A program made the position numbers and the translations under genes. Source: Microthyrium microscopicum (taxonomy: Eukaryota). From it: DNA of 64,000 bases. Below, piece after piece: positions 42,479 through 64,000 of this stretch. Location: assembly GCA_010405405.1 (NCBI GenBank), contig MU004230.1, positions 2,328,627 through 2,392,626 on the forward strand. The letters run 5' to 3'. Under the pieces are notes generated by a model. That model was not told where the DNA came from. It did no database searches and was given only the letters and a program-made list of their open reading frames with translations. Each line of letters opens with the position of its first letter. The first letter of the stretch is position 1.

Positions 42479-43146
42479 AGCTTCGCGTGCTGAAGGTTGG
42501 CGATCAACTGAGGGATTGAGATGGCGGGAAGTGGTGATGAAGGTTGATCCCACGGATTTAGCCCGGAATTAACGTCGAATTCACTTTACTTCATCTCATC
42601 TTTTGAAAACTTTATGCTTACCATTTTCCATGTTTTAGTGCGTCTATTCAAGATGAATCAACAGGTTTGACTTAGGTTGATTCTCTTTGTATCTGTTTAG
42701 GTAGTCCGCACTATTGCAAGTTACTTCGTACAGCACGCCTGGCCCAGGCCCCCAAGGCGATTGACCCGATATTTCAATTGCAGGTTGCGACAAGGACAAC
42801 CTCTAATAACGCGCTGTTATTGGAGGTCAACACCTGCTGGCTACTCTTGTAGTTGTCCAAAGAAGAAGGGTTGAAAGCAAAAGCCTCGAAGCTAGCAGAT
42901 TCGGAAATTTTCGTCGAGAAAGAAGATGGACCGATCGATGACGATAGCGGCTGAACATGTGTAAAAGTGACCGAGCTTCCTACGAGAAAGTGTCTCAGCT
43001 CTCCTGATGGTGGTTGAACACAAATTTCTGCTTACACTACGGTCTCAAGATTAACAAACGGTATTGCGGAGAGTAAACACTCACCCAGCACGCCAGATAG
43101 ATAACGCATACTTTGTGCATAAAACCGTCGTGCAACATATCCTGAG

Positions 43147-44815
43147 ATGTGGGATCAGCTGGAACCAACGGCGCCCCACGTCACATATCTCACGATATCA
43201 ATATTCCTCATTATATATGCCCTTTTCTCGGTCTTTATCAGGGACAAGCTCCATCTCTCAGGTAAGAAGCCACATGGCTCATGAAGCGTCATAAGGCTGA
43301 CTCACTACTCAGAACCTCCTTTGGCTGTTTTGTATGGCATCGTTCTTGGTCCACATGTTCTGAAAGTTATCGTTCCCAACGATTGGGGCTTTAATGATGA
43401 GATCCTCCAAGAAATTACTCGTATCATTGTCGGTATCCAATGCTTCGTTGTTGGGATCGAGCTGCCAAAGCTGTATTTTGGACGGTAAGGTTTTTCCCTG
43501 TGAAATCGAGTATCTCTTGACAACATTGGATGAACTCAAGAACATCGTTTCTCTATCGCACTCGGCGGGTGTTTCAATGTTTCACCGCAAAAGACCTTCT
43601 AGTCTTTCCAGGCGCGTTAGCGTTGATTGTGATCTTGTACTGACGAATTTCAGTCATTGGGAATCAGTACTTTACCTCCTGGGACCGATCATGACGTTTT
43701 CATGGGCTGTAACATCAATACTCGCCTACATCATTTTCCAGTGTTCTGTACCTACTGCAATGATCATTGGGGCTTGCCTCTCACCCACGGATCCCGTCTT
43801 AGCAGCCAGCGTCCTCTCAGAATCACACTTCAGCAAGAGAGTTCCGAAGCGGCTTAGGGATCTCTTATCCGCAGAATCAGCCTGCAATGACGGAGTCTCC
43901 TACCCGTTCCTTTACATCGGTGTGGTGGCACTCAACTATTCTCACAATGCAGGCGAAGCATTCAAGGAATGGTTCTTGATTACAGTCCTCTGGCAATGCG
44001 CATTTGGTATTTTTTCGGGAATCATTATCGGCAACACTGCCAATAGAGTTCTCCGCTTTTCAGATGGACGAGGCTACATCTCGAGACCATCATTCATCGT
44101 GTTCTACCTCCTCCTGGCTATGCTCAGCATCGGCGTTGGATCAACTCTTGGCACGGACGACTTTCTGGTGGCATTTGGAGCAGGCGTTGGTTTTGCACAT
44201 GATGGCTGGTTCAGCAAGAAGATCAAAGATGCACCATTCCCAATCATCGTCGACCTGATTCTCAACAGCAGCATGTTCGTTTTGTTCGGGTCTATTATAC
44301 CATGGCAGATGTTCCTGCCTCGAGAAATCACGCCTCACTGCGGGATATGGCAGCTCGTCCTGTTCCTCATCCTCGTCTTGCTATTCCGACGTATCCCGAT
44401 CGTGCTAGCGATGAAGCGCTTCATCCCCGATGTTCGCACGTACCGTGAAGCGCTCTTCTGCGGCCATTTCGGGCCCATGGGTGTTGGTGCATTGTTTCTT
44501 GCTATGGAATCTAGAGCTGAGCTCGAGAACGGGACTTCAGTCCCGTGGGGCAAGCCGAGGAAACTGACTCCACCATTCAGCAACAACGACAAGGCAATTG
44601 AGCTGGTATGGCCAGTAATTTGCTTTGTGGTGTTCGGAAGCACGTTCGTGCATGGTTTAAGTACGCTGGGTATCAGCGTCGTCGGACATTTCAGTCGCAA
44701 AGAGGGTGAGAGAGCGCCACTTTTGGCGCAACAGACGGATGGCCTTGATTCAATGGTTCATGAAGGCGGTGGTGGCGAGAGCGAGCCGGAAGTCAGTGGT
44801 AGTGATTATGAGTAG
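43147..44815 (+). CDS. Plasma-membrane Na+/H+ antiporter (Nha1/Sod2 family, CPA1)
   Basis: MWDQLEP start; IRDKLHLSEPPLA; PTDPVLA; ESACNDG; GTDD; RRIP; GHFGPMGVGA; VHGLS. Introns ~43262-43311 and ~43484-43653. Confidence 0.93.
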
Positions 44816-45097
44816 GCTGCATTACTCCGAACTGGAGTCGTAGCAATTTCCATGGCAAGAGTCATGACATTTAAGACGTCAGCGTTTTAATATGTTTCCC
44901 ACATTTATCGGATTCGAGAGTAAAAATTATCCTTCATTGTTCAGTTCATCAGCTCTGGAGCTAATTCTTAAGGTCCAAGCCACAACAGACTTCTATGTAT
45001 GCCGATGTGGCTGTCATACCTTCAGTAGCCCATATTGGACAAACAACACCCCAAGAGATACAATATGTGTTCACCATTGAACCACTGCCTCAATTTT

Positions 45098-45703
45098 CTA
45101 TGCCAACTTTCGTCCAGTCATCTCTCGCACTTCATTGTCAATTTCTCCCATAAGTACATCGAGAACCTCGAAGCGGAACGTCGGATTGCAGCCGTCCAAG
45201 AGTGTACGGATGGTTCTAAAGTGACTCTGCAAGTAGTTAGTGCTCTTTCCGTAGACTGATGTTGGATTCGGCGTGCCGTGCTTTTCTGCGTCCAGAATCG
45301 CAGTCACTTCTCTCATTGGCATGTCGTCGGGGAAGTTGCCATGCTCATCCAAATTGCCCTGATATGAGGTTGCGACTCCTTGTCCGGTGGACTCTGCCAG
45401 TGCGATAGCTGCCACTGCCTTGTCGATCTTTTTGCGCAGGTTCACAATCAAGATCTCGATAGTAGGGTCGAACGTAGGTAGTGGCATGGGACCAAAGACC
45501 GTTGGTGGCATTGCTGGATCATTGGCGGCGACAGATTGCTCACTTGAATTGCTGTTTTGCGCTTGTTCTTTGATGTCGGTGTCCTGGGCGATTGGAGCCT
45601 GGACATTATGCCCGTCTTGATGAGACGGTTCATCACCAGAGTTGATAGTGTCGCCGATAGCAGAGCCCTTGCTCTGCTTGCTTTGTGGGTGTTCTTCAGT
45701 CAT
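45098..45703 (-). CDS. Orphan hypothetical protein (201 aa, starts MTEE)
   Basis: Intronless ORF, good Kozak context (GCCATG), TATAAAA ~85 bp upstream, acidic/helical composition. Confidence 0.65.
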   Translation of the reverse strand: MTEEHPQSKQSKGSAIGDTINSGDEPSHQDGHNVQAPIAQDTDIKEQAQNSNSSEQSVAANDPAMPPTVFGPMPLPTFDPTIEILIVNLRKKIDKAVAAIALAESTGQGVATSYQGNLDEHGNFPDDMPMREVTAILDAEKHGTPNPTSVYGKSTNYLQSHFRTIRTLLDGCNPTFRFEVLDVLMGEIDNEVREMTGRKLA

Positions 45704-46495
45704 GGCGATTGGTTGGCAATGTATGGTGGATAGTTTCGCTTCAGATGTTTGGTGTCTGTGTGATGGGAAGAGGGAGGAGAGGGCCTTTTATACTTCAAGA
45801 CTTTGAGAGAGGCCTGGTAAGGCGTCAACTCTCCTATGCTTCCTTCCTCTTCTGGCACTCACTTTTCACTATGCTGGAGCCTCACTACTTGACCAGGCAA
45901 CAAGTCTCAAGCTCTCAACTCGCTCCTCAATCAATTGAAAGAGCCTCGAGTGCTACCTGAAAAGGCAGGCAAACTTTATGACCTGTCATTCAAGGGTTCA
46001 TTCTACCAAGGTGCATAATATTTCAAGATATTTGAGAATAGCTATGAACAGGAACTATCCTGGAATTTCAACACCATCGAACATACAACAATCTATGGCG
46101 AATTGCTTGGTAAGTTTTTTTTCGCTACTTATCCCTTCAACTGAAATAGAAAGCCATTCAAGCAGTGCCATTCATCTGAAGCGATTCTAGGAGACTATAT
46201 ATACAAGCTGTTCCAGCTTTCTCGATCGTGGGCTTGATGAGAATAGTCCATCTACAAGAGCATCTGCGTGTTTTCCTGCGCCTGACTTGGTCTCATAAGG
46301 TTACAGGATGGTCACCATAAGGGAGCTGGTCAGCCGGGCTCGGCCACTCGCCCTGCGTACGACACAGGAAGAGCTGACGGCAAACGGACGTTTGTCTTCG
46401 CTAAATGTAGTATTAGCTTCTGCAAATCTGATAACACAGGTATGGGACACATCATGCTTGCTTACCTCAATTACAAGGCCCATAGACAGCAGGAT

Positions 46496-47029
46496 TCAGC
46501 GAACATCGTCTTCTTCGTTGAACATACAAAACTGGTGTGTGCTCCATAGGAAACCTATAGCACCATCTGCAAGAGTGAGTATGAAATAAATGGTTTCATA
46601 ATCGCAGATGTCCAGATTTGGGTGCGCCATGTAGGCTTTTGCCAGGTCAACTTCTGCCAAGATACGATTCAGATACTGCCGGGAGTAGATTGGTTGGCCT
46701 GGTCGCTCGTCAAGTTCGTCATGAGTTATATCGTATGGATATATAGCTCCTTCGTGCTGCTGTGCTAGAGAATGTATCGACTTATCCACGTCCTTGAGAA
46801 TACTGTCAATCATAGTCCATAGGTCTGTGATTTCTTCTTCAGTGATGGGGACCTCATGATCCTCCACAAGAGGAGGTCGGATGAGGATGACAGGACGGTG
46901 GATTGTTTGATAGTCTTCGTCGTCGATCTCAACCAGCTGGCTGGGGTCAATTGCCCAGTTGTAACTGGCGATGATTTGTTCTGTGGTGATTTCATTGCCA
47001 TCGACAATTGGCGGTAGTTCCTCTCTCAT
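46496..47029 (-). CDS. Orphan MREE-family protein, paralog A (177 aa)
   Basis: Aligns by eye to 47612-48178 and 49349-49876 (LDERPGQPIYSRQYLNRILAEVDLA). Confidence 0.8.
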   Translation of the reverse strand: MREELPPIVDGNEITTEQIIASYNWAIDPSQLVEIDDEDYQTIHRPVILIRPPLVEDHEVPITEEEITDLWTMIDSILKDVDKSIHSLAQQHEGAIYPYDITHDELDERPGQPIYSRQYLNRILAEVDLAKAYMAHPNLDICDYETIYFILTLADGAIGFLWSTHQFCMFNEEDDVR

Positions 47030-47611
47030 GGCGCCAAAGACTTTGAAGCGATTTGTTTTGTGGATTGGCGGTTAAGGGCCGAAAAGATGAGAAGCAGGGG
47101 AGTTGGAGAAAAAGAAGCTCATGTCGAATCTCAATCGACTATATAGGGACTGCAACCTTGAAGAGGTGCGCGATAATCTTCACTACAAGGAGATGCTATA
47201 ATTCACCCAAGGTTGTTCCATATAGGCATCCTCATAGGGAGTGAACGTGCAGTCACTGCGCAAATTCAGGTGCTATTTACCTCAACTGAACCCGGCTCTT
47301 TTTGGTCGATTGCGGCAAGTAGAGTCTTGTTTGAGAGCCTTCACTGTTGATTCTATGTAAGGCTCAGAAATGGCTCAGATTTTGTCGTACAAGATTGAGC
47401 AAGTTGTTGGCCGCGCCAGGTGAAACTATTTCTTCGGGGTATGGATTGTGTAGAGCTGAAAGCAATCAATGATGACACTGCTACCTGGAGTATTAGCCGC
47501 CGTGCCATATCAGGAAGCAGAATTGGGAACGTAATATCAGCTTACTATCAATCCTGTCATGCCATTTCGTATGAGACGACTGCCACCAAGACCAATATTT
47601 TACAGCAGTGT

Positions 47612-48178
47612 TTAGACGAAGTTGTTTTCGTCTGTAGGAGCTTGGGTCCAGTTTGACATCTGATACTCGAACCACATTCGCGATGCAGCTCTCTGCGCTG
47701 TATAGAGAATATCAAGAGCAGGCACATAACGTGACTGCGCATCCAGATCTGAGGTCAATATGCGCGTCTCCGCCAGATCAACCACTGCCGCTATACGTTC
47801 CAAATAGTCTATTGAGAGAATCGGTTGACCGGGCAGCTGGTCAAGGCTGTCATGGTCCACTTCTTTCGTAACTTTAAAGTCCTCCCGCTCGCGTAAATCA
47901 ACAACCTTCTCATATACCTGGTCGACAAGGTCGTCAATCTCATTCATAGCATTTGCGATTGCTTGTGCGGTGAGGGGTTCCTCAGGTTCGTCCTCAAGTC
48001 CGTTCTGCATCTCTTCCAGATGAGGAGTTTGAACAAATCTCGCAAGATTTCGATTGAGATCAAGGTCTGGATCGATCGCCCGCAGCTGGTTGGGATCGAT
48101 CGACAGGTTATAGAAAGCGATGATATCTTCTGCGGTGAGTTCTCGGCCCGCCACGGTCGGTGCTTGTTCTTCTCTCAT
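47612..48178 (-). CDS. Orphan MREE-family protein, paralog B (188 aa)
   Basis: MREE..G.E.T.E.IIA.YN..IDP.QL shared with paralog A; LDQLPGQPILSIDYLERIAAVVDLA. Confidence 0.8.
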   Translation of the reverse strand: MREEQAPTVAGRELTAEDIIAFYNLSIDPNQLRAIDPDLDLNRNLARFVQTPHLEEMQNGLEDEPEEPLTAQAIANAMNEIDDLVDQVYEKVVDLREREDFKVTKEVDHDSLDQLPGQPILSIDYLERIAAVVDLAETRILTSDLDAQSRYVPALDILYTAQRAASRMWFEYQMSNWTQAPTDENNFV

Positions 48179-49348
48179 GATGCCGAAGCTTTGATATACA
48201 TTTGTTGTATGTGCTGTCTGTAGCTACTACCTACGGAGCTTGGAGAAATTCCGAAGTCGACTTGTTCCGGTTTGACAGGATGAGTGTTTGGAGAGCCGAG
48301 GAGATAGAAAGAAGGAGATCTGGAGAAGAACAAGTTAAATTAAATCTCCAGAAGCCTTATAGGAATCGCGATTTGAAAGAAGAGGTGCGCAATCATTTCC
48401 ACTACAGGACGGACGCGATACTTCACCTCAGCTTGTTATATAGGTAAACTTCCAAAGAGATAAACTTGAGCTACTTCGCAGTTTGAGGTGCCAACAGCTT
48501 CAATTTGGACGACCTGAATATCCCAATTGAGACTATCAAAGATCTACTCGGCAGCCTTATCGCATGGTCGTAATCAAGATCTGGTATGTACATGCCGCGC
48601 TCTAAAATTTCGAATCTACTCATAAAACGGTTTGTAACGGTCTTGTAAAGATGATCAAGGAGTGAAGTTTGGGAACCATTACGTGAGATGATGTCGATAT
48701 TTTAAACGTGTACAACTTGTTTGCCTATATGCTATTGGAAATTCCTGCTCTTAGTCGATCTGATTGCGTTCTCCTTCCCGGTGCTTTGTGTCAATGTCCA
48801 GTGCCAATTTCCTAACTAAAAGACTACTGAAAGATTTCTATATTGACGATAACACGAACAGAGGGCCATCATTATAGTTATTATTCTGCCCTCTACCATA
48901 TGAAAGCAATTGGTCAATCATGAACTCGGATAGGTTTGATTATGATGACCTACACGCAAGCAATGCTGGTGGACTTATGTTTGTTATGTCTTCATTGCTC
49001 ACACCTACTCTAAACTAGATATCAATGCTAAGTTTAATAATGTTATATTGCTAGGGAGTGTGCAGGGAGCATCACTTCGAGTGGTTTGGATAATTTCTAT
49101 TAGGCCATGATAGTTGTTCTCCTTTTCTCGAACCACATCCGTGATGGACCAAAGGACTTCTTGGGCAAAGTCGTCCAAGTTTTGCGATTTCCAGCTATAT
49201 ACATAGGATTTCAGGGCTCTTCTAAGTCAAAATTAGAATCTAGATCACTATCGTTCGCGTTCAATGCAAGGGGTCACTCGCTTCTGCGCGCCGGAGGCCT
49301 CTTTCATAAAAAATAGATGATACGATATTCAGAAATTGGGCTCAACCA

Positions 49349-49876
49349 TCATTCGCGTGGAAGCCGACTCATGATTGCCTCATGATAAATTGACCACGGA
49401 CCAAGTATCGCATCTTCCGCTGCAGAAAGTATGGACTCCGCAGTCAGTAGTCGGGAAGTCAGATTCAAGCTTCCGTCCGTCATGAGTTCTTTTGCCAGGT
49501 CCACTTCCTCCAATATGCGCTTGAGATATCGGCGCGATGTTATAGGCTCATTTTCCAGGTTTTGAAGGTCGTCACGTACGACTGGAACTGCATCTGCGAC
49601 TAAATCTGATCCGGGTTGTTGCAGAGAATCAAGCTGTTCGTTCACCGACGCAAGAAGCTCTTCGATGCTTTCGCGTGCTTGTGTGATCTCTTGGACTGTG
49701 GCAGCACCAGCTAAGTCCCCTCCGAATGGGCCGTTTAATGTTTGAAGAAGCGTGGTAGGAGGCATATTACCTGCCATCAGACGAGGATTAACAACTTGGA
49801 TGTTGAAACGGCTCATAATCTCGTTGGTCGTGGGCTCTTCGCCTGCCGCGTTTGTTGGAAGGCGCTCTTCTCTCAT
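49349..49876 (-). CDS. Orphan MREE-family protein, paralog C (175 aa)
   Basis: MREERLP..GEEPTTNEI; LQNLENEPITSRRYLKRILEEVDLAK; C-terminal IL..AE.AI...W like paralog A. Confidence 0.8.
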   Translation of the reverse strand: MREERLPTNAAGEEPTTNEIMSRFNIQVVNPRLMAGNMPPTTLLQTLNGPFGGDLAGAATVQEITQARESIEELLASVNEQLDSLQQPGSDLVADAVPVVRDDLQNLENEPITSRRYLKRILEEVDLAKELMTDGSLNLTSRLLTAESILSAAEDAILGPWSIYHEAIMSRLPRE

Positions 49877-50943
49877 GGCTAGGGTTTCAATAGTGCTCTA
49901 TACTAGGGACTGTGGATTGTGGAGCTGGTAATGGAGCTGGTAAGAAGGAAAAGAATTAAGCTTAGGCGTTCGGACCTTATAAAGGGTATACTTCACCTGA
50001 GCATGATCGTTAAGCTTCTGCCTTGGAGTATATGATGGAATCTAGTCACTTCGCGTCTCCAGGTGCCAGATATTCTGGGCAACTCAAAGTGAGCCATCCT
50101 CGTGGAGAAAGGCATAGTTCGGGCTCAATGGCTTTTTGTCTGAAGTAGAAAACATTATTTATATACAATGCATTGTGGTTCTCAGTCGCAGTATCGATCT
50201 TTTAGATTGTATTGAAGCACTCAGAAATCTGTCATTATGGATCTATACTTCAGTCAACTTCTTGATGGCCACTGATCTAGACAGATAATGTATATCGGCT
50301 TGCTAAGTAGGTCAGTAGGCACTCAAATATGTATTGCCATAAATAGTGGTTCTTTGTTTTTGTCTTTGTTCTACAGCAAACAGTTAAATCACTGGAACAT
50401 TCCCAGTTGCGAGTTGTCAAATTAAGTGAATGATTGCATACTATGAGAAAGGCAAATCTATTGAGATTATCGCACATGGTTTTTTTGAGCGCCCTTCCTA
50501 AAACCGGGTAAGGCATCTAGAAACCAGGAATCTCCAATAGTTGAGTGTTCGGGGTCGATGAGTGAAACCTGCTTTGTTCAACAATACTCATTTTGGATTG
50601 GGCTGAATGTAGAAGATACAAAAGTTGATTTTGTATGAGTCCTGAGTAGTCTGCTTAGCCCTTCATTCAGATTCAAGGCAGAAGAAAGTTTGTCGTTACA
50701 TACTGTTCAGTCGGAGCCTGATACCAAAAGACTACCATATGCCAGCACAATGGTCAAACAAACTGGAGTACAGACATTACTTCATTGTCTACTAGCTTAT
50801 GGTATTTGAACTGAGTACACTTTATAGCTCTCTCCGGAACCAGAAGGGCAAGTACTGGATAATTGAACACATTAAGAAGAAGAACAGAGCAGTGTTGAAA
50901 TGAAGAAGTTCGTCCTATCACCTTTAGGTTCTCTGATGATACC

Positions 50944-51714
50944 TCAGTCCAAGGGTGCATCCAAGTCCTGCTTCTGCTCCGCCGCTTCTTGCTCATTGCC
51001 AAGAAGCTCTGCTGCTCCTTGCTCTTGAACATTTTGCTCAACTGTCTCTTCTTGAGCTACCGTCGTGCCTCGACTTGGCGACTGTCTCTCCAGGATGAGC
51101 CTGAACATCGTTGCCGTCGAATCAAACCTAATCCACAGCTCATCAATGTTTCTTTGCGACTGAGTTATACGTGCCTCTGCATCGGCGATCACTCTGTCCA
51201 TACTAGCAAGTCGTGAACGTACACTCCCAACTCTTTGGACAGTCGTAGCGAAATCTAGCTGTGCAGTGATACTGTTTTCTGCACTGAAAGCAAGTCCCAA
51301 GGCATTTTGGGCAATAAGAGCTTCCAAGCTGGCAAGTCCTGTTCGTAATTCCGCATCTAGTCGATGCCAGACAGCTAGCGCCGCGATCATGTGGATAACA
51401 TCCGACTCCTGGTCGACAAGGACGGCCTGGGAATCTAGCATATCAGTTTGGAGGGCTCTGAGTTGCGTGGCGTATGGACCGGGAGGAATGATGGACGCCT
51501 CAAACAGAGTACTTCTGGGACTGAACGCCACGGCAACTTGAGGAGCTGGTGTACTAGTAGTGGCGGAGTTTGTATTGAGAGGGTGTAAAGCGTCTGAAGG
51601 AGTGGCCTGAGGTTGTTCTTCTGGGACCGCGGCGTCAAAGAGTCGGTTGATATTGTTGATGATGTCCTCGGCGGTGGCATTGCTAGGCTTGTTGGCAGAG
51701 CTTTTATCCTTCAT
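50944..51714 (-). CDS. Orphan coiled-coil hypothetical protein (256 aa)
   Basis: Intronless ORF, CATCATG start context, heptad-like helical C-half. N-terminal TAEDII is identical to paralog B. Confidence 0.7.
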   Translation of the reverse strand: MKDKSSANKPSNATAEDIINNINRLFDAAVPEEQPQATPSDALHPLNTNSATTSTPAPQVAVAFSPRSTLFEASIIPPGPYATQLRALQTDMLDSQAVLVDQESDVIHMIAALAVWHRLDAELRTGLASLEALIAQNALGLAFSAENSITAQLDFATTVQRVGSVRSRLASMDRVIADAEARITQSQRNIDELWIRFDSTATMFRLILERQSPSRGTTVAQEETVEQNVQEQGAAELLGNEQEAAEQKQDLDAPLD

Positions 51715-52063
51715 GATGGATGATGGGTGGATTGATGGATGGGCAAACTAAAACACCCGGTGGAGTATTCAGACTTTTTACCACATGACTGAAGTGGAAG
51801 AAGATGGAGTAAATCAAGAACTCGCAAAATCCGTGGAAATGTACTCGACTGTTTTGGCTCCCAAGAGGTCTGGTGTGCTCTTGCCTCAAGCTGCATGTTT
51901 ATCTCCCACATTTTGGGAAGGACGACCAATGTGAACATCCGTTTGACAATTCCCACTCGATTTTTTAACTTTGCAAGAACCACACATTTCAGATCGCAAT
52001 CTTGGTTTATCATGGGTTATATTATACTGGTTAGAATTGACAAAACAGTCCGCTCGTTAGATA

Positions 52064-52609
52064 TCAGCGAATAGTGTGATACCAGACAAAGCAAACAAAA
52101 TAGAGGAACCCCAGAACGCGTAGCAACTGATGGTATGGCGCCCACTTCTTCATTCTCTTCAACTCCGCTTCGAATTCCGCGAGACCTTCTTCGCAATCAA
52201 TTATCGCTTCTGTCATAGCCACAGTAAGCATTGCTTGCGCCATGCCTTCCAGAAAAGGATCCCGATGTTCAAAGTGTGCCAGGGAAGAGGATGATTCATG
52301 ACTTGCAACAAGGCCGTCCCAGAGTTGACGTAGATCCGCGAGGGGAGCTGCGCCGGGCGCATCTTCACCTGGGTGGTGAAGTCGGGATAGTATGATGTTG
52401 AAAATTGTATCGGCATTACGAGGGAGAAGCTCTGTCGTGTCCGCATAGAATGCCGCCGCATGTCTATTGATACGATTGAAGTTGGCCGCTGGGGAGACGG
52501 GGATGGTGGGCATGGTGGTTACTGCAGGGTCGAATTGTTCGTCGAGCATCTGGAGGATCGGAGGTACCATGACTCTCATTCTCTTGGTAGGATATTGTTC
52601 TTCCCTCAT
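52064..52609 (-). CDS. Orphan protein starting MREEQ with hydrophobic C-terminal tail (181 aa)
   Basis: MREEQYPT resembles MREEQAPT of paralog B. C-terminal LLRVLGFLYFVCFVWY is a possible tail anchor. Confidence 0.7.
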   Translation of the reverse strand: MREEQYPTKRMRVMVPPILQMLDEQFDPAVTTMPTIPVSPAANFNRINRHAAAFYADTTELLPRNADTIFNIILSRLHHPGEDAPGAAPLADLRQLWDGLVASHESSSSLAHFEHRDPFLEGMAQAMLTVAMTEAIIDCEEGLAEFEAELKRMKKWAPYHQLLRVLGFLYFVCFVWYHTIR

Positions 52610-53051: not shown

Positions 53052-53786
53052 TCAGCCTCCAAAATGCGGATTCTTTCCGCATTTTTCGATGCTGTCGAGC
53101 GGCAGTCGGTCCCATAGGAAAGCGTGAACAGTACGCACATCGTCTGTCATACTAATACCACGTACAGCCCCATGAATCTCCCGTTTCAGTCGACACAGCC
53201 AGGGTACGGAATCGGGTGGTTGGGAGATACCATTCTGGATAGCGAGCATATCTTTCGCCATCCAGTATCGTATTCGTGTTTCAAGAAATGCGCCTCGATT
53301 CTCAATGTCATCTCGTGGAATTTCCAGAGAGGCTGCGAGAGCAAAGAGCGGCTCCGTTCGTTTGAGCTCTACCCACAGTCTGCGATAAGCGTTTCGGTCG
53401 AGCTCAGGCGTATGTTCGGTGTTCTCTCCACGGCGATAGTTTTTGTAAATAAGTTCGGCAATGGCCATTACTCCGTAAAAGGCTGCATCCTCGGACTCAA
53501 CGTAACGAGCTCGCGCGCCAACAAAGGGATTGTGAATGCGGCGGTTGCGAATCTTGCGAGCGCTTTCGAGAGCGAGACGCTCAGCCGCTGGGCAATCTGC
53601 CTGAAATTTGTAAGTAGGAGTTCAGGACATGTTGTCATTTAGCCAACATTCGTTGAAAGGATCGAAAGATATTCCCAGCACGAATTCCCGGCATGCTATA
53701 TGGAAGCCATGGAGTGGAAATATAGCACAATATGAACCATATCGAGACAGGAGTTTTGTACGAGGGCAACTTACCATAAGTCTCAT
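53052..53786 (-). CDS. Orphan hypothetical protein, second family (intact copy)
   Basis: Micro-exon ATGAGACTTATG followed by GTAAGT; intron 53774-53601; then ADCPAAERL...NPFVGARARYVESED, open into track ORF 53052-53468. Homologous to 54514-55010. Confidence 0.65.
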
Positions 53787-54513: not shown

Positions 54514-55010
54514 CTAACCTTGGTTCCATAGCTCAGCATGCTCGACGCGCTCAGCATCCGTCATGGCCATGCCGCGTACCGCATCTTGCAGGTGTTCACG
54601 CATGGCAAAAGTCATTGAATCTTGAGGATGAGGTTGCGAAGTGCTATTGTTCAGGTAGATGTGTGCCGCGTTCAGATCATAAGAAGGTGCGTTTAGTGGA
54701 CGGCGTTGCAAATTGCTGTTCGGATACACAAGTGTTGCCGCAAGCGCAAAGTGTTGGTTCGCTCTGACAAGATCTGCCCATACTTGACGGTACTCTACAC
54801 CGCACGATTTACAGGCCCGGTCTGACGGTTCTCGCTTCAAGGGGTGTTCTATCGCTCATTACGGATGTCGATATCGTCCATTACTGCGGTGAAAGCCATA
54901 TCTTCGGACTCTACGAACTGAGCTCGTGCGCCAGCGAATGGATTGCGTTCTTGATGCAAGCGAGCGCGAACACGAGCACGCCTTTCTTGTCGTCGACAAT
55001 CACTCAAGGT
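54514..55010 (-). pseudogene. Disabled paralog of the 53052-53786 gene
   Basis: NPFAGARAQFVESED, YRQVW..L...FALAA.L and AVRGMAMTD match the neighbour. In-frame TAG and TGA near 54835-54850 and a frameshift interrupt it. Confidence 0.7.
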
Positions 55011-55291: not shown

Positions 55292-56143
55292 ATGGCAGTA
55301 ACAACAACAACCACCACAACCACCGCGCTTGAACAACTCACCCTCCTCCAATCCAGCGCCTCCCTCTCCCTCCTCGACCTCGCCACCAGCTTCACAAAAG
55401 ACACCGCCCAAGAGCCCAGTGGGGCGCGCACCTCCGACGCATCCTCCACCTACTCCGACCCCGACGTACCCACACCCGCCAGTCTTGCAGCCGACCTAGC
55501 GCACTACAAAGAGCTCTTTGACAAACTAAGCTTCAGCTACATCGAACAAGTCACCAAAGAAAAGTTCTTACGCGCAATAACCGCTGAAACACCGCTTTTT
55601 ATTGAGCCTGCAGATAATGCGGCTCTGGAATCACAACTTGCGCTTGAAGAAGAGGAGTTGAAGGAACAGAAAGCACAGGTCGCGGCATTAACGCAACAAC
55701 TTGAGGCGCGGGGACGGGAATTGGCGACACGTTATGAGGGGCTGGTAGAGCAGGGACAGATGGTGCAGGATTTACCGGGCCATTTAGCGGAGTTGGAGGC
55801 GCAGATCGCGGAGTTGAGGGGGGAATATCCTAGTCCGGTGAAGAGTGGTGATGAGCAATTGAATTTGCCGCTCGCGGACACGTTGGTGCTACTGGCGGAG
55901 CAGCAGAAGGAGTTGGCGGAGACGGAGGCGCAGATTGCGGCGCTACAAAGTGAAGGACCAGAGCGAGCGAGGGAGTTGGCAAGGGTGGAGGAGGAGCTTG
56001 CTGGGTTGACGACGCAGAAGAAGATGGCGGTGGGGAGAGCACGAGAGGCGAGGGCGCGAAAGGAGGCGGGTGGTATTGATGAGGTTGAGAGAAGAGGTCG
56101 GTGGTTAAGAGCGGAGGAGGCGCTCTTGAGTGATTTTGTATAG
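55292..56143 (+). CDS. sos7: Kinetochore protein Sos7 (Spc7/Knl1 partner, coiled coil)
   Basis: ADLAHYKELFDKLSFSYIEQVTKEKFLRAI signature, then LNLPL, a long coiled coil and terminal RGRW. Confidence 0.85.
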   Translation: MAVTTTTTTTTALEQLTLLQSSASLSLLDLATSFTKDTAQEPSGARTSDASSTYSDPDVPTPASLAADLAHYKELFDKLSFSYIEQVTKEKFLRAITAETPLFIEPADNAALESQLALEEEELKEQKAQVAALTQQLEARGRELATRYEGLVEQGQMVQDLPGHLAELEAQIAELRGEYPSPVKSGDEQLNLPLADTLVLLAEQQKELAETEAQIAALQSEGPERARELARVEEELAGLTTQKKMAVGRAREARARKEAGGIDEVERRGRWLRAEEALLSDFV

Positions 56144-61449: not shown

Positions 61450-64000
61450 GGGGTTGCTTAGACCCTATTACTAAATTAGGTAGCGCACTACCAAAATTAA
61501 TAATAAGAGCTAGAATATAATAGAATACGTATAGATCTATAGGTAGATTACGTAAGATTATAAGATTTTTAGTAAGTATATTTTTAGGGTGCTATTAAAG
61601 TAAGATTTTAGTATTAATAGTAAATTATATATATTAAGACATAGAATAAGCTAAAGAGAAAGAAAATAACGCTAAATTACTATATTCTCCCTAATTCTTA
61701 GTATTTTAATACTAAACGTTAGTTACTATAAAATTACGCATTATATCCTAACCCCTTATAGATTAAATACTTCTATTAAATAATTGCTAAAGGTTAAATT
61801 AGCTACCCTACTTATTATCTCTTCTTCTATAAGAACTTCTACGTTTTTAATATATCTAATAGAAGAAGAGAAGGATTATTAGATATCTTAAGATTAGTAA
61901 TACTAATAGGCTTTATATAGAAGTTAGTTAGTATAGCATACTTATTATCTTCATCTTTATTAGCGTTAATATAAGCCTTCTTAAAGAACTTAATTAATTA
62001 TATTAAATATATAAAATTAATAAGATTCCTCCTAATAATAATAATAGCTTTAAATACGTATAAGTAGAAAAATTGCTTATTCTACTATCTATAGTAATTA
62101 TAAGTCCTAGAATTAATATTAATAGTATATTCCTTTAAATAAGAAGTATATTTTAATATACTAGTAAGAGTTATAAGATTAAAAGAATTAAGTATAATAA
62201 TAGTAACCTATTTAGAATAAAATAACGTAGTATTATAGAAGTATTAATTATAATAAGTAAAATCTATAGGCATAAGATATTACTATAGATTTAAATATTT
62301 ATAAATTTAATCTTTAGCTTCTTAATACTTAGAACGCTTTTTAATAATATAATTCTAGATACTATTTAAAAGAGGAATAAAATACTTATAATAGTAGCCT
62401 TTAAGAACTAAATTAATAATCTTAGTAGTATTAGATATTAACTAACTATAATACGGTATAAAAAAGTATTTATAAACCTATTTCTCTTTAGGTAGCTTTT
62501 TAATATAATTCTTAAAGTTAATAAAATAGTTAAGAGTATTCTATAGCATTAGATAGTTCTATTAGTAGATAGAATTATAGTTAACGTAATAATTAAGCTA
62601 TCTTAATGCTTATATACTAAAATTAGACTATATATTCTACTTAAGGTAAAAGAAATATTATCTAAGGGCGTAAACCTTAAAATTTAAGTCTAGCATATTT
62701 AAAAGACCTTAATTTTAATTAATAATTATAGTAGAGTAAAATTCTAAAAGAAATATAGTTAGATATAGTTAGATATTTTAAAGATATAATTAAGAAAGAG
62801 AAGAAAAAAAGAGCTAGAAGAATAGTAAATCTAGCTAGAAGAAAGTAAATTTAGAAACTAGCGCTAAGACTTATAAAGATTACTAATCTTAATACTAAGT
62901 ATTATGCGTCCTAGATATATATATATCTACTCTTATAACTTATTATTCTTACCTTTAAAGATACTAAATACGTAAATTATTATATTAGCTTTACTATTAA
63001 ATCTAGTAATAATAACTATCTTAGTATTATATTCTATTTTATAGTAAGTAGCATCTAAACTAATAATTTTAGGTAACTAAGCAAAAATTGCTTAACTAAT
63101 AAATAAATATATAAATACGTATTAAATCTACTTTATAAGAGCCTTCTTAAATATAATATAAATTTTAGGATTTACTTATTTAAGAGCCTTAATCTAGGAG
63201 GGAAGTATCTAATAGCTATTAAGGAATTTATTTTTAACTCTTCTAAATATCTTACGCTTTAGTTAAGATACCTATTAAAGAGTAATAGCCTAACCTATAT
63301 ATTTATAAATTATATTATAAATATCCTAATTTAGCGTATTCTTATTAAGAGCGCTATAGGCTTTAATAAGCTTCTTTATAATCTATAACTTTAAAGTATA
63401 TACTTATTATAAAGTAGTTCTTATTAAATAAGTATAGTCTTTAAGCGCGTTAATCTATATTAAAATCTACTTCTTCTTAGTAATATTAACGCATTTAGGA
63501 ATTAATTTTATAACATATACGCCCTATTTATAAGTATCCTTCTAATACTATTAGAGTTATTAATCCTCTCCTAAACCTCTCTTCTTATAGACTTTAAATC
63601 CTATCTTTACTACTATAAGATATAGAATAGTATTAATATCCTAATAGTTATTATATACTAAACTAACCTATAATTTCTTCTATAATTCCTTTTTATCTTT
63701 AGTAATACTAGTAGTAATAATAGAATTAATTAGTTTTAGCATTAGCATAATACTATAGATATTATTCTTAAAGAGCCTTAGGTATAGGAAGATACCTAGC
63801 TCTAGCTTATTATTATTAACGCTAGTAAGATTAATAAAGTTAATTTTAAGAAGAGGTACTAAATTTTTAATAAGAATAACATTAAAGTTTAAAGCTTACT
63901 TAATAGGAACATATCTAGATAAATATAAAAAAGCTATAGTAAAGTATAGGTAAGTAGATATAAATAAAATAAAGATATAATATCTTTTAAATAAATTATA
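61450..64000. mobile_element. AT-rich RIP-degenerated repeat or transposon relic, class not determinable; continues beyond window
   Basis: Abrupt drop in GC, very frequent TpA, near absence of CpA/TpG while some CpG persists, no ORF of 60 aa or more in the track. Confidence 0.88.

Follow-up and report, generated by a model that had tools for sequence, protein, structure and literature searches.

Background

Lineage-restricted, tandemly duplicated and fast-evolving small gene families are common in filamentous fungi, and most of the clustered families of such kind that have been described encode secreted effectors bearing signal peptides and cysteines. Another layout that matters in the following is that of the syntaxins, where an N-terminal peptide is followed by the three-helix Habc bundle. 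Here we describe a locus of the fungus Microthyrium microscopicum which can be compared with both, namely three adjacent genes, referred to as A, B and C, in a stretch of 64,000 nucleotides (assembly GCA_010405405.1, contig MU004230.1, positions 2,328,627 to 2,392,626 of the forward strand); this whole stretch is called the window, and all coordinates below are counted from its first letter. A sequence-only reading, made without any database search, had taken the three genes for diverged paralogs of an acidic helical protein family that it did not recognise. Our analysis revealed that A, B and C are real tandem paralogs, and the explanation that we favour, with a probability of roughly 0.6, is that they form a protein-coding and lineage-restricted family whose products act as a binding module.

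Three tandem paralogs and the constraint on their frames

The three genes are adjacent on the minus strand and each of them consists of a single open frame, from which its translation is predicted: A at 46496..47029 with 177 amino acids, B at 47612..48178 with 188 amino acids, and C, the most diverged copy, at 49349..49876 with 175 amino acids. By BLASTP, A and B share 61 of 177 residues (81.6 bits, E 2e-24), A and C share 54 of 173 (60.1 bits, E 1e-16), and B and C share 52 of 184 (50.4 bits, E 6e-13), which means that the identity between paralogs goes down to 28-34% within this one genome. The Smith-Waterman z values are 28.4 for A-B, 25.0 for A-C and 17.6 for B-C, and in each pair the observed score was reached by none of the 200 shuffles, so that the three diverged paralogs claimed by the sequence-only reading hold up against chance. 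Moreover, Met1 is exactly where the homology sets in, and it extends to within about 20 residues of each stop codon, while the 300 bases downstream of the three stops bear no similarity among the copies; for this reason the open frames look like whole intron-less units.

All three proteins start with MREE, their N-termini being MREELPPIVDGNE, MREEQAPTVAGRE and MREERLPTNAAGE for A, B and C respectively, and the alignment has 36 invariant columns. They include M1, R2, E3, E4, P7, G11, E13, T15, I19 and N24 in the N-terminal part, I67, I74, V81 and L88 in the central part, P113, I114, S116, Y119, L120, R122, I123, V127, D128, L129 and A130 in a third block, and I150, L151, A154, A157 and W162 near the C-terminus. 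The motif blocks that had been named from the letters are all found among these columns, although two of the spacers between them were off by one residue, since the alignment reads MREE-x-x-P and not MREE-x-P, and L-x5-(Q/E)PI and not L-x4. The four central residues are exactly seven positions apart as in a heptad, and the invariant residues of the stretches 119-130 and 150-162 recur every three to four positions, which is the pattern expected of buried faces in amphipathic helices. The conservation is far from even along the proteins: in windows of 15 columns the identity is 0.47-0.60 in columns 1-15 and 121-135, and falls to 0.07-0.33 in columns 31-120, and there are gaps between the copies, in agreement with the earlier description of strongly differing linkers with insertions and deletions.

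As for the coding DNA, 45-52% of the positions differ between the copies, and the gaps are whole codons throughout. When neutral mutation was simulated at the observed nucleotide divergence (5000 mutants), the frames stayed open in only 0.10%, 0.08% and 0.04% of the mutants, from which it follows that the three frames have been kept by selection. The older pairs, A-C and B-C, agree with this at the codon level: the identities at codon positions one, two and three are 0.55/0.55/0.33 for A-C and 0.51/0.55/0.36 for B-C, with the third position lowest, and the ratio of nonsynonymous to synonymous substitution (dN/dS, Nei-Gojobori method, NG86) is 0.33 and 0.31 respectively, both rough values since dS is saturated. 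Taken with the spacing of seven or of three to four that the invariant hydrophobic residues keep within the predicted helices, the open frames and the least conserved third positions in these two pairs support the idea of purifying selection on a fold.

Repeat-induced point mutation (RIP) was considered as a source of the divergence and rejected. The RIP indices are normal at 45-55 kb (TpA/ApT 0.68, (CpA+TpG)/(ApC+GpT) 1.33), and transitions are not dominant among the A-B differences (98 transitions against 140 transversions).

Similarity of the upstream regions

The resemblance of A and B extends to the DNA before their start codons. The upstream region of A at 47075..47273 aligns with that of B at 48292..48491, both on the minus strand, with 144 of 190 aligned bases identical (76%; z 24.2, reached by none of 200 shuffles), and because these regions align, the duplicated unit is taken to have included the promoter and the 5' leader. 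In fact, the upstream DNA of this pair is better kept than its coding DNA, the latter being only 55% identical, with Jukes-Cantor (JC) distances of 0.29 and 0.70 respectively; judged from the sequence, this points to a regulatory constraint on the upstream part or to its gene conversion.

A short element is shared by all three copies. On the minus strand, it reads GGTGAATTAT at 47198..47207, which is 169-178 nucleotides before the ATG of A, and GGTGAAGTAT both at 48418..48427, 240-249 nucleotides before the ATG of B, and at 49988..49997, 112-121 nucleotides before the ATG of C. The exact word GGTGAAKTAT has three copies in the 64-kb window, and all of them are these, on the coding strand and 112-249 nucleotides upstream of the three start codons. 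Moreover, a TATA-like box followed by a C/T-rich stretch can be read from the sequence on the same strand before each gene, namely TATATAG at 47139..47145 about 116 nucleotides before the ATG of A, TATAAG at 48356..48361 about 183 nucleotides before that of B, and TATAAG at 49976..49981 about 105 nucleotides before that of C. The shared upstream element suggests that A, B and C may be regulated together. A scan of the window for bacterial promoters and terminators gave results at chance level, such bacterial models being irrelevant to a eukaryote.

Predicted properties and architecture of the proteins

The proteins are strongly acidic, as the sequence-only reading had stated, with isoelectric points of 4.17, 4.14 and 4.43 and net charges of -27, -24 and -14 for A, B and C. 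They have no long hydrophobic segment and contain 0-2 cysteines each; their most hydrophobic windows of 19 residues reach Kyte-Doolittle (KD) values of 0.83-1.30 and are located at residues 120-146, not at the N-terminus. Judged from these hydropathy windows and from the charged MREE N-termini, no signal peptide was found in any of the three. As there is no hydrophobic N-terminus and cysteines are few, the proteins are inferred to be intracellular.

AlphaFold2 models of A and C were built on the alignment of the three sequences. The model of A has a mean pLDDT (predicted local distance difference test) of 50 and a pTM (predicted template modelling score) of 0.43, with helices at residues 16-23, 64-91, 103-108, 117-134 and 141-176; that of C has a mean pLDDT of 60 and a pTM of 0.60, with helices at 17-23, 61-85, 104-109, 115-132 and 139-170, and its core blocks reach a pLDDT of 67-88. 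Residues from about 23 to 58 stay below pLDDT 50 in both. In both models a short helix lies in the conserved N-terminal motif and is followed by a disordered linker and then by an up-down-up three-helix bundle, and the architecture is probably one in which a disordered N-terminal half stands before an antiparallel three-helix bundle. The small helical bundle proposed earlier is therewith supported at low to medium model confidence, and the models suggest three helices preceded by a disordered half rather than a HeLo-type or four-helix bundle.

The fold found no specific counterpart in the structure libraries. With VIA-align the best match is a designed three-helix bundle, 9rgv_A, with Z 9.5 and a root-mean-square deviation of 2.5 A over 94 aligned residues, and this Z is below the value of about 13 that helical bundles reach by arrangement alone. 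Foldseek against the PDB gave no match at E<=0.001, the best being at E 0.32 and the identities at 7-17%, and in the ESM Atlas the best feature score of 0.81 and the structural template modelling (TM) scores of at most 0.35 are both at chance level.

Search for relatives

No relative of the three proteins outside this genome was detected in any of the libraries searched. Against Pfam-A, A and B have no family at E<=1, and none of A, B and C has a match at or above a gathering cut-off, which bears out the statement that the family was not recognised; the sub-threshold matches of C are chance ones, to Prominin (12.4 bits, cut-off 34.3) and EXOC6_Sec15_N (11.4 bits, cut-off 27.2). A sequence search of the PDB returned only designed coiled coils at E>=0.18. 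A word-indexed search with the alignment of A, B and C over 5.8 billion protein clusters yielded 5307 candidates, among which the significant matches, three of three, were A, B and C themselves, assigned in that library to a contig of 4,545,044 bases. The search by a hidden Markov model (HMM), which the sequence-only reading had proposed, led to the same: with HMMER, a profile from the three sequences had four matches at E<=0.001 among 1.84 billion representatives, and these were A, B, C and one spurious repeat protein. The last one (P0004, 3026 amino acids, E 1.1e-07) was rejected as a relative, for its seven matched stretches lie on a Ser/Thr/Glu-rich repeat which happens to contain a word like QPIVSREFLDR, and the short matches are a compositional accident. 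Within the window, a protein HMM run over all 596 stop-to-stop open reading frames (ORFs) placed nothing but A, B and C above the inclusion threshold, and with nhmmer neither another copy nor a pseudogene came up, the best additional match being at E 0.33.

The neighbouring kinetochore protein Sos7 gives a measure of how such results should be read. It has 550 relatives, and the named matches span several classes of Pezizomycotina; its best full-length matches are only 50-51% identical, however (P0008, a Logan protein, and P0009 of Tothia fuscella), and the best partial ones, two metagenome proteins, are 65-66% identical over 72% of the query. Since even Sos7 has no nearer full-length match, the libraries contain nothing closely related to this genome, and because the paralogs are only about 30% identical within a genome so isolated, a family like A/B/C would be undetectable elsewhere. 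On these sequence comparisons the orphan status of A, B and C is expected and by itself is no sign of de novo origin; as far as the searched libraries go, which include no close relative's genome, and with the DNA-level search for further copies covering the window only, A/B/C is a lineage-restricted tandem family with no homolog outside the genome.

Sequencing contigs over the locus

Sequencing contigs from the runs X5, X6 and X7 fall on the locus. No run is on record as RNA; X5 was taken as RNA by guess, and the kind of X6 and X7, which are one sample of another study, is not on record. X5 nevertheless behaves as RNA, because it carries a joint of 81 nucleotides, bounded by GT..AG, which is absent from the DNA run X1. 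The corresponding intron (GTAAGT..TAG) is at 46110..46190 on the plus strand. It is seen in a contig of 3859 nucleotides and depth 149 spanning about 42851-46790, with 45000-46108 and 46190-46790 as the parts joined, which runs over the ORF of a Na+/H+ exchanger and then antisense over ORF E, which lies next to A, and over the 3' 295 nucleotides of A. Further X5 contigs are at 47592-47743 (3' end of B), 51467-51671 (inside ORF F) and 51857-52297 (3' part of ORF D), the last two ORFs lying beyond C.

Contigs of X6 and X7 cover B at 47792-48290 and 47890-48064, and C at 49512-49739 and 49519-49701; they are also found on F and once on the spacer between B and C. Of the four X7 pieces, three overlap with pieces of X6, as would fit a transcript-like and uneven cover. 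The X5 contigs leave out C and the 5' half of A, and those of X6 and X7 leave out A, gaps that are not evidence in themselves. The contigs carry no strand, and all are 100% identical to the window, so that they provide no ortholog for a dN/dS estimate. The contig in the spacer, from X7 at 48745-48967, lies where no minus-strand ORF of at least 60 amino acids is listed, and it may stem from a transcript that is not translated, or just from DNA cover.

Genes around the paralogs

The Pfam matches of the window are Rav1p_C, PRMT, a ZIP transporter, an amino-acid permease, the Na+/H+ exchanger (43394-44815, plus strand) and Sos7 (55292-56143, plus strand). Between the last two there is an island of about 10 kb with minus-strand ORFs, none of which has a Pfam match: E, A, B, C, F, D, G1 and G2. 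E (45098-45703, minus strand) starts with MTEE and is otherwise unrelated to A/B/C; F (50944-51714, minus strand) encodes an acidic protein of 256 amino acids; D (52064..52609, minus strand) has 181 amino acids, and G1 (53052-53468, minus strand) and G2 (54514-54840, minus strand) have 138 and 108. G1 and G2 are a second significant paralog pair in the island, with a Smith-Waterman score of 127 and a z of 26, reached by none of 200 shuffles.

Among these neighbours, D deserves a closer look. The pattern ATG-MGN-GAR-GAR occurs four times in the window against 0.44 expected, a number reached by none of 100 shuffles, and the fourth of them, on the strand of A/B/C, provides the start codon of D; the protein starts with MREEQYPT, to be compared with MREEQAPT of B. 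When the N-terminal 45 residues were tested, B-D gave a z of 4.1, reached by 7 of 2000 shuffles. Beyond its first 8 residues, D has no detectable similarity to A/B/C, with hhalign aligning 12 columns, and the search of 5.8 billion clusters returned no relatives for it. Going by those first 8 residues, D is possibly a fourth member that has diverged very far, or else a chimera with nothing but the first codons in common with A/B/C. It also has a hydrophobic C-terminal stretch (KD maximum over 19 residues 1.63, at residue 162), which could be a tail anchor.

For E and F no membership is claimed. The family profile gave hhalign probabilities of 0.27%, 0.38% and 3.46% for E, F and D, and in the N-terminal test the z values were not significant for F (2.3 both for B-F and for D-F) and E was unrelated. 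It was also observed that F has TAEDII at residues 14-19 and B has it at 15-20, and that the FDAAV of F resembles the FDPAV of D, neither likeness being significant. At the far end of the window, from 61500 to 64000, the composition drops abruptly to 18-23% GC, with a TpA/ApT of 1.50 and a (CpA+TpG)/(ApC+GpT) of 0.12, and by these indices the AT-rich block is a RIP-degraded signature.

A proposed lineage-restricted binding module and the alternatives

In the explanation that we favour, tandem duplication of a unit made of a promoter and one intron-less open frame would have given A, B and C, which would be a fast-evolving and lineage-restricted family with small, strongly acidic and intracellular products. 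Each protein would consist of three parts: an N-terminal motif of about 30 residues from the initiator Met, MREExxP..GxExT..I...[YF]N; a poorly conserved, indel-rich and probably disordered acidic linker; and an antiparallel three-helix bundle with the invariant residues at buried positions. That A/B/C is a real protein-coding family with this architecture we consider likely. As to their role, the proteins are small, they lack a conserved group of polar residues such as a catalytic site typically has, and their conservation falls on core positions, which speaks for a non-enzymatic function, and a binding function would be the most likely one. The bundle would then be a stable scaffold, while the N-terminal motif, the acidic surface or both would dock onto a partner protein, and after duplication the paralogs would have retained core and N-terminal motif as their surfaces and linkers diverged.

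Several points weigh against this. There is no homolog and no domain in the Pfam, PDB, cluster, representative and Atlas searches, and hence no handle on function. Confidence in the models of A and C, which were built on three sequences, is low to medium, and the ESM Atlas model of B has a pLDDT of 0.41. Constraint on A-B, the youngest pair, is weak: with a dN of 0.63 and a dS near 1.0 (0.97-1.06), the codon-based check proposed by the sequence-only reading, which came out low for A-C and B-C, gives only 0.63-0.80 here, and the third codon positions are conserved no less than the first (0.51 and 0.51). Finally, the sole splice seen in the RNA-like X5 is on the plus strand, opposite to A, in a contig covering the 3' part of A; this contig may represent a long 3' untranslated region, a transcript that is antisense or has read through from the side of the exchanger, or several overlapping transcripts merged into one.

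The alternative that survives best, unlikely as we hold it to be, is that A, B and C are unrecognisably diverged members of a fungal family already described, for example one with a three-helix adaptor or regulatory domain, and are orphans only by the isolation of the genome and their fast evolution. The distance of Sos7 from its best full-length matches and the paralog identities of 28-34% would allow for this, and three-helix bundles are very common indeed, with 330 of 48161 chains at Z>=5 in VIA-align. However, the profile recovered only A, B, C and the spurious repeat protein from the 1.84 billion representatives, and neither Pfam at its cut-offs, nor the PDB sequences at E<0.18, nor the Atlas, where scores up to 0.81 are at chance, offered a candidate family.

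Clearly less probable is the possibility that the genes act on one side of a conflict within the genome or between individuals, such as allorecognition, a meiotic-drive antidote or an anti-virus function, where the copies diversify by positive selection with core and promoter kept. It would fit the A-B coding DNA that has diverged so much further than the adjoining upstream DNA, linkers and surfaces that are nearly unconstrained, the same-strand island without Pfam match, which holds a second paralog pair and the likewise relative-less D, and the RIP-like AT-rich block 10 kb away. On the other hand, positive selection on the A-B protein is not proven because dN does not exceed dS, the divergence at 25 four-fold sites of conserved residues (K4) being 0.66; the kept upstream region is explained equally by regulatory constraint or gene conversion, and the Pfam search of the window ORFs revealed no HET, NLR, HeLo or toxin-like domain nearby.

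A still bolder version, to which we give only a slim chance, would treat the ORFs E, A, B, C, F and D (45098-52609, about 8 kb) as one hyper-diverged family that arose by repeated tandem duplication under diversifying selection. At the same slim odds, all that its distant members would still share is the start M[RT]EE, an N-terminal TAEDII / FD[PA]AV motif and the promoter elements; the members might include soluble three-helix proteins (A-C) at one end and D, possibly with a tail anchor, at the other; and the whole might serve intracellular conflict or recognition, as a type of system so far undescribed in fungi. Least probable of all, and very much so, is that the ORFs are untranslated, being non-coding or decaying remnants overlain by transcripts of other genes or by antisense ones, a view which could appeal to the plus-strand splice, the lack of homologs and the low structure confidence, but which has to face frames of 175-188 codons kept open where hardly any neutral mutant stays so, periodic conservation at the protein level with third positions least conserved in two pairs, and an upstream motif and TATA-like boxes on the coding strand.

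Comparison with known systems

Returning to the binding module that we favour, its relation to described systems can be judged by four comparisons. The HeLo and HeLo-like pore-forming domains of fungal cell-death proteins, a comparison suggested by the sequence-only reading, share with A/B/C that they are fungal, helical and small. At the sequence level the comparison was not borne out, and the models do not suggest it: the N-terminus of A/B/C is charged and not hydrophobic, the models point to three long helices and not to a larger bundle, at E<=1 none of A, B and C matches a HeLo-type Pfam model, the structure matches listed for these low-to-medium-confidence models include no HeLo entry, and no NLR or prion-motif partner gene is seen in the window.

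Three-helix bundles, for example the designed sc-apCC3, the spectrin repeat, GAT, BAG and Der f 21, have the topology predicted for residues from about 58 to 177, and the non-significant Foldseek matches are in fact to spectrin repeats, the GAT domain of GGA1, the BAG domain of BAG1 and Der f 21. The difference is that no match is specific or significant (Foldseek E 0.32, VIA-align Z 9.5) and no sequence relationship was found. The likeness to syntaxins, which we put forward as an analogy of general layout, would be that A/B/C have a conserved N-terminal peptide, a flexible linker and an antiparallel three-helix bundle in the same order, and the neighbour D, which shares the N-terminal peptide, has a hydrophobic C-terminal stretch. 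A, B and C differ in having neither a SNARE motif nor a membrane anchor, and no Syntaxin or SNARE Pfam match was obtained for A, B, C or D.

The nearest comparison is with the orphan tandem families of filamentous fungi. Like these, A, B and C are small, intron-less, arranged head-to-tail, strongly diverged and without outside homolog, and they are found in the interval between two conserved genes, those of the Na+/H+ exchanger and of Sos7. From the clustered secreted effectors they are set apart by the charged MREE start, the 0-2 cysteines and the absence of a hydrophobic N-terminus. To sum up, A/B/C is a clean and small case, with three intact copies, a heptad core, a motif at the very N-terminus and a promoter better kept than the coding sequence. 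It can serve as a tractable system for what fast-evolving intracellular orphan proteins do, and its alignment as a seed for finding the family as related fungal genomes appear. The sequence family is new, being recognised by neither profile nor structure libraries, while the phenomenon it belongs to is a familiar one.

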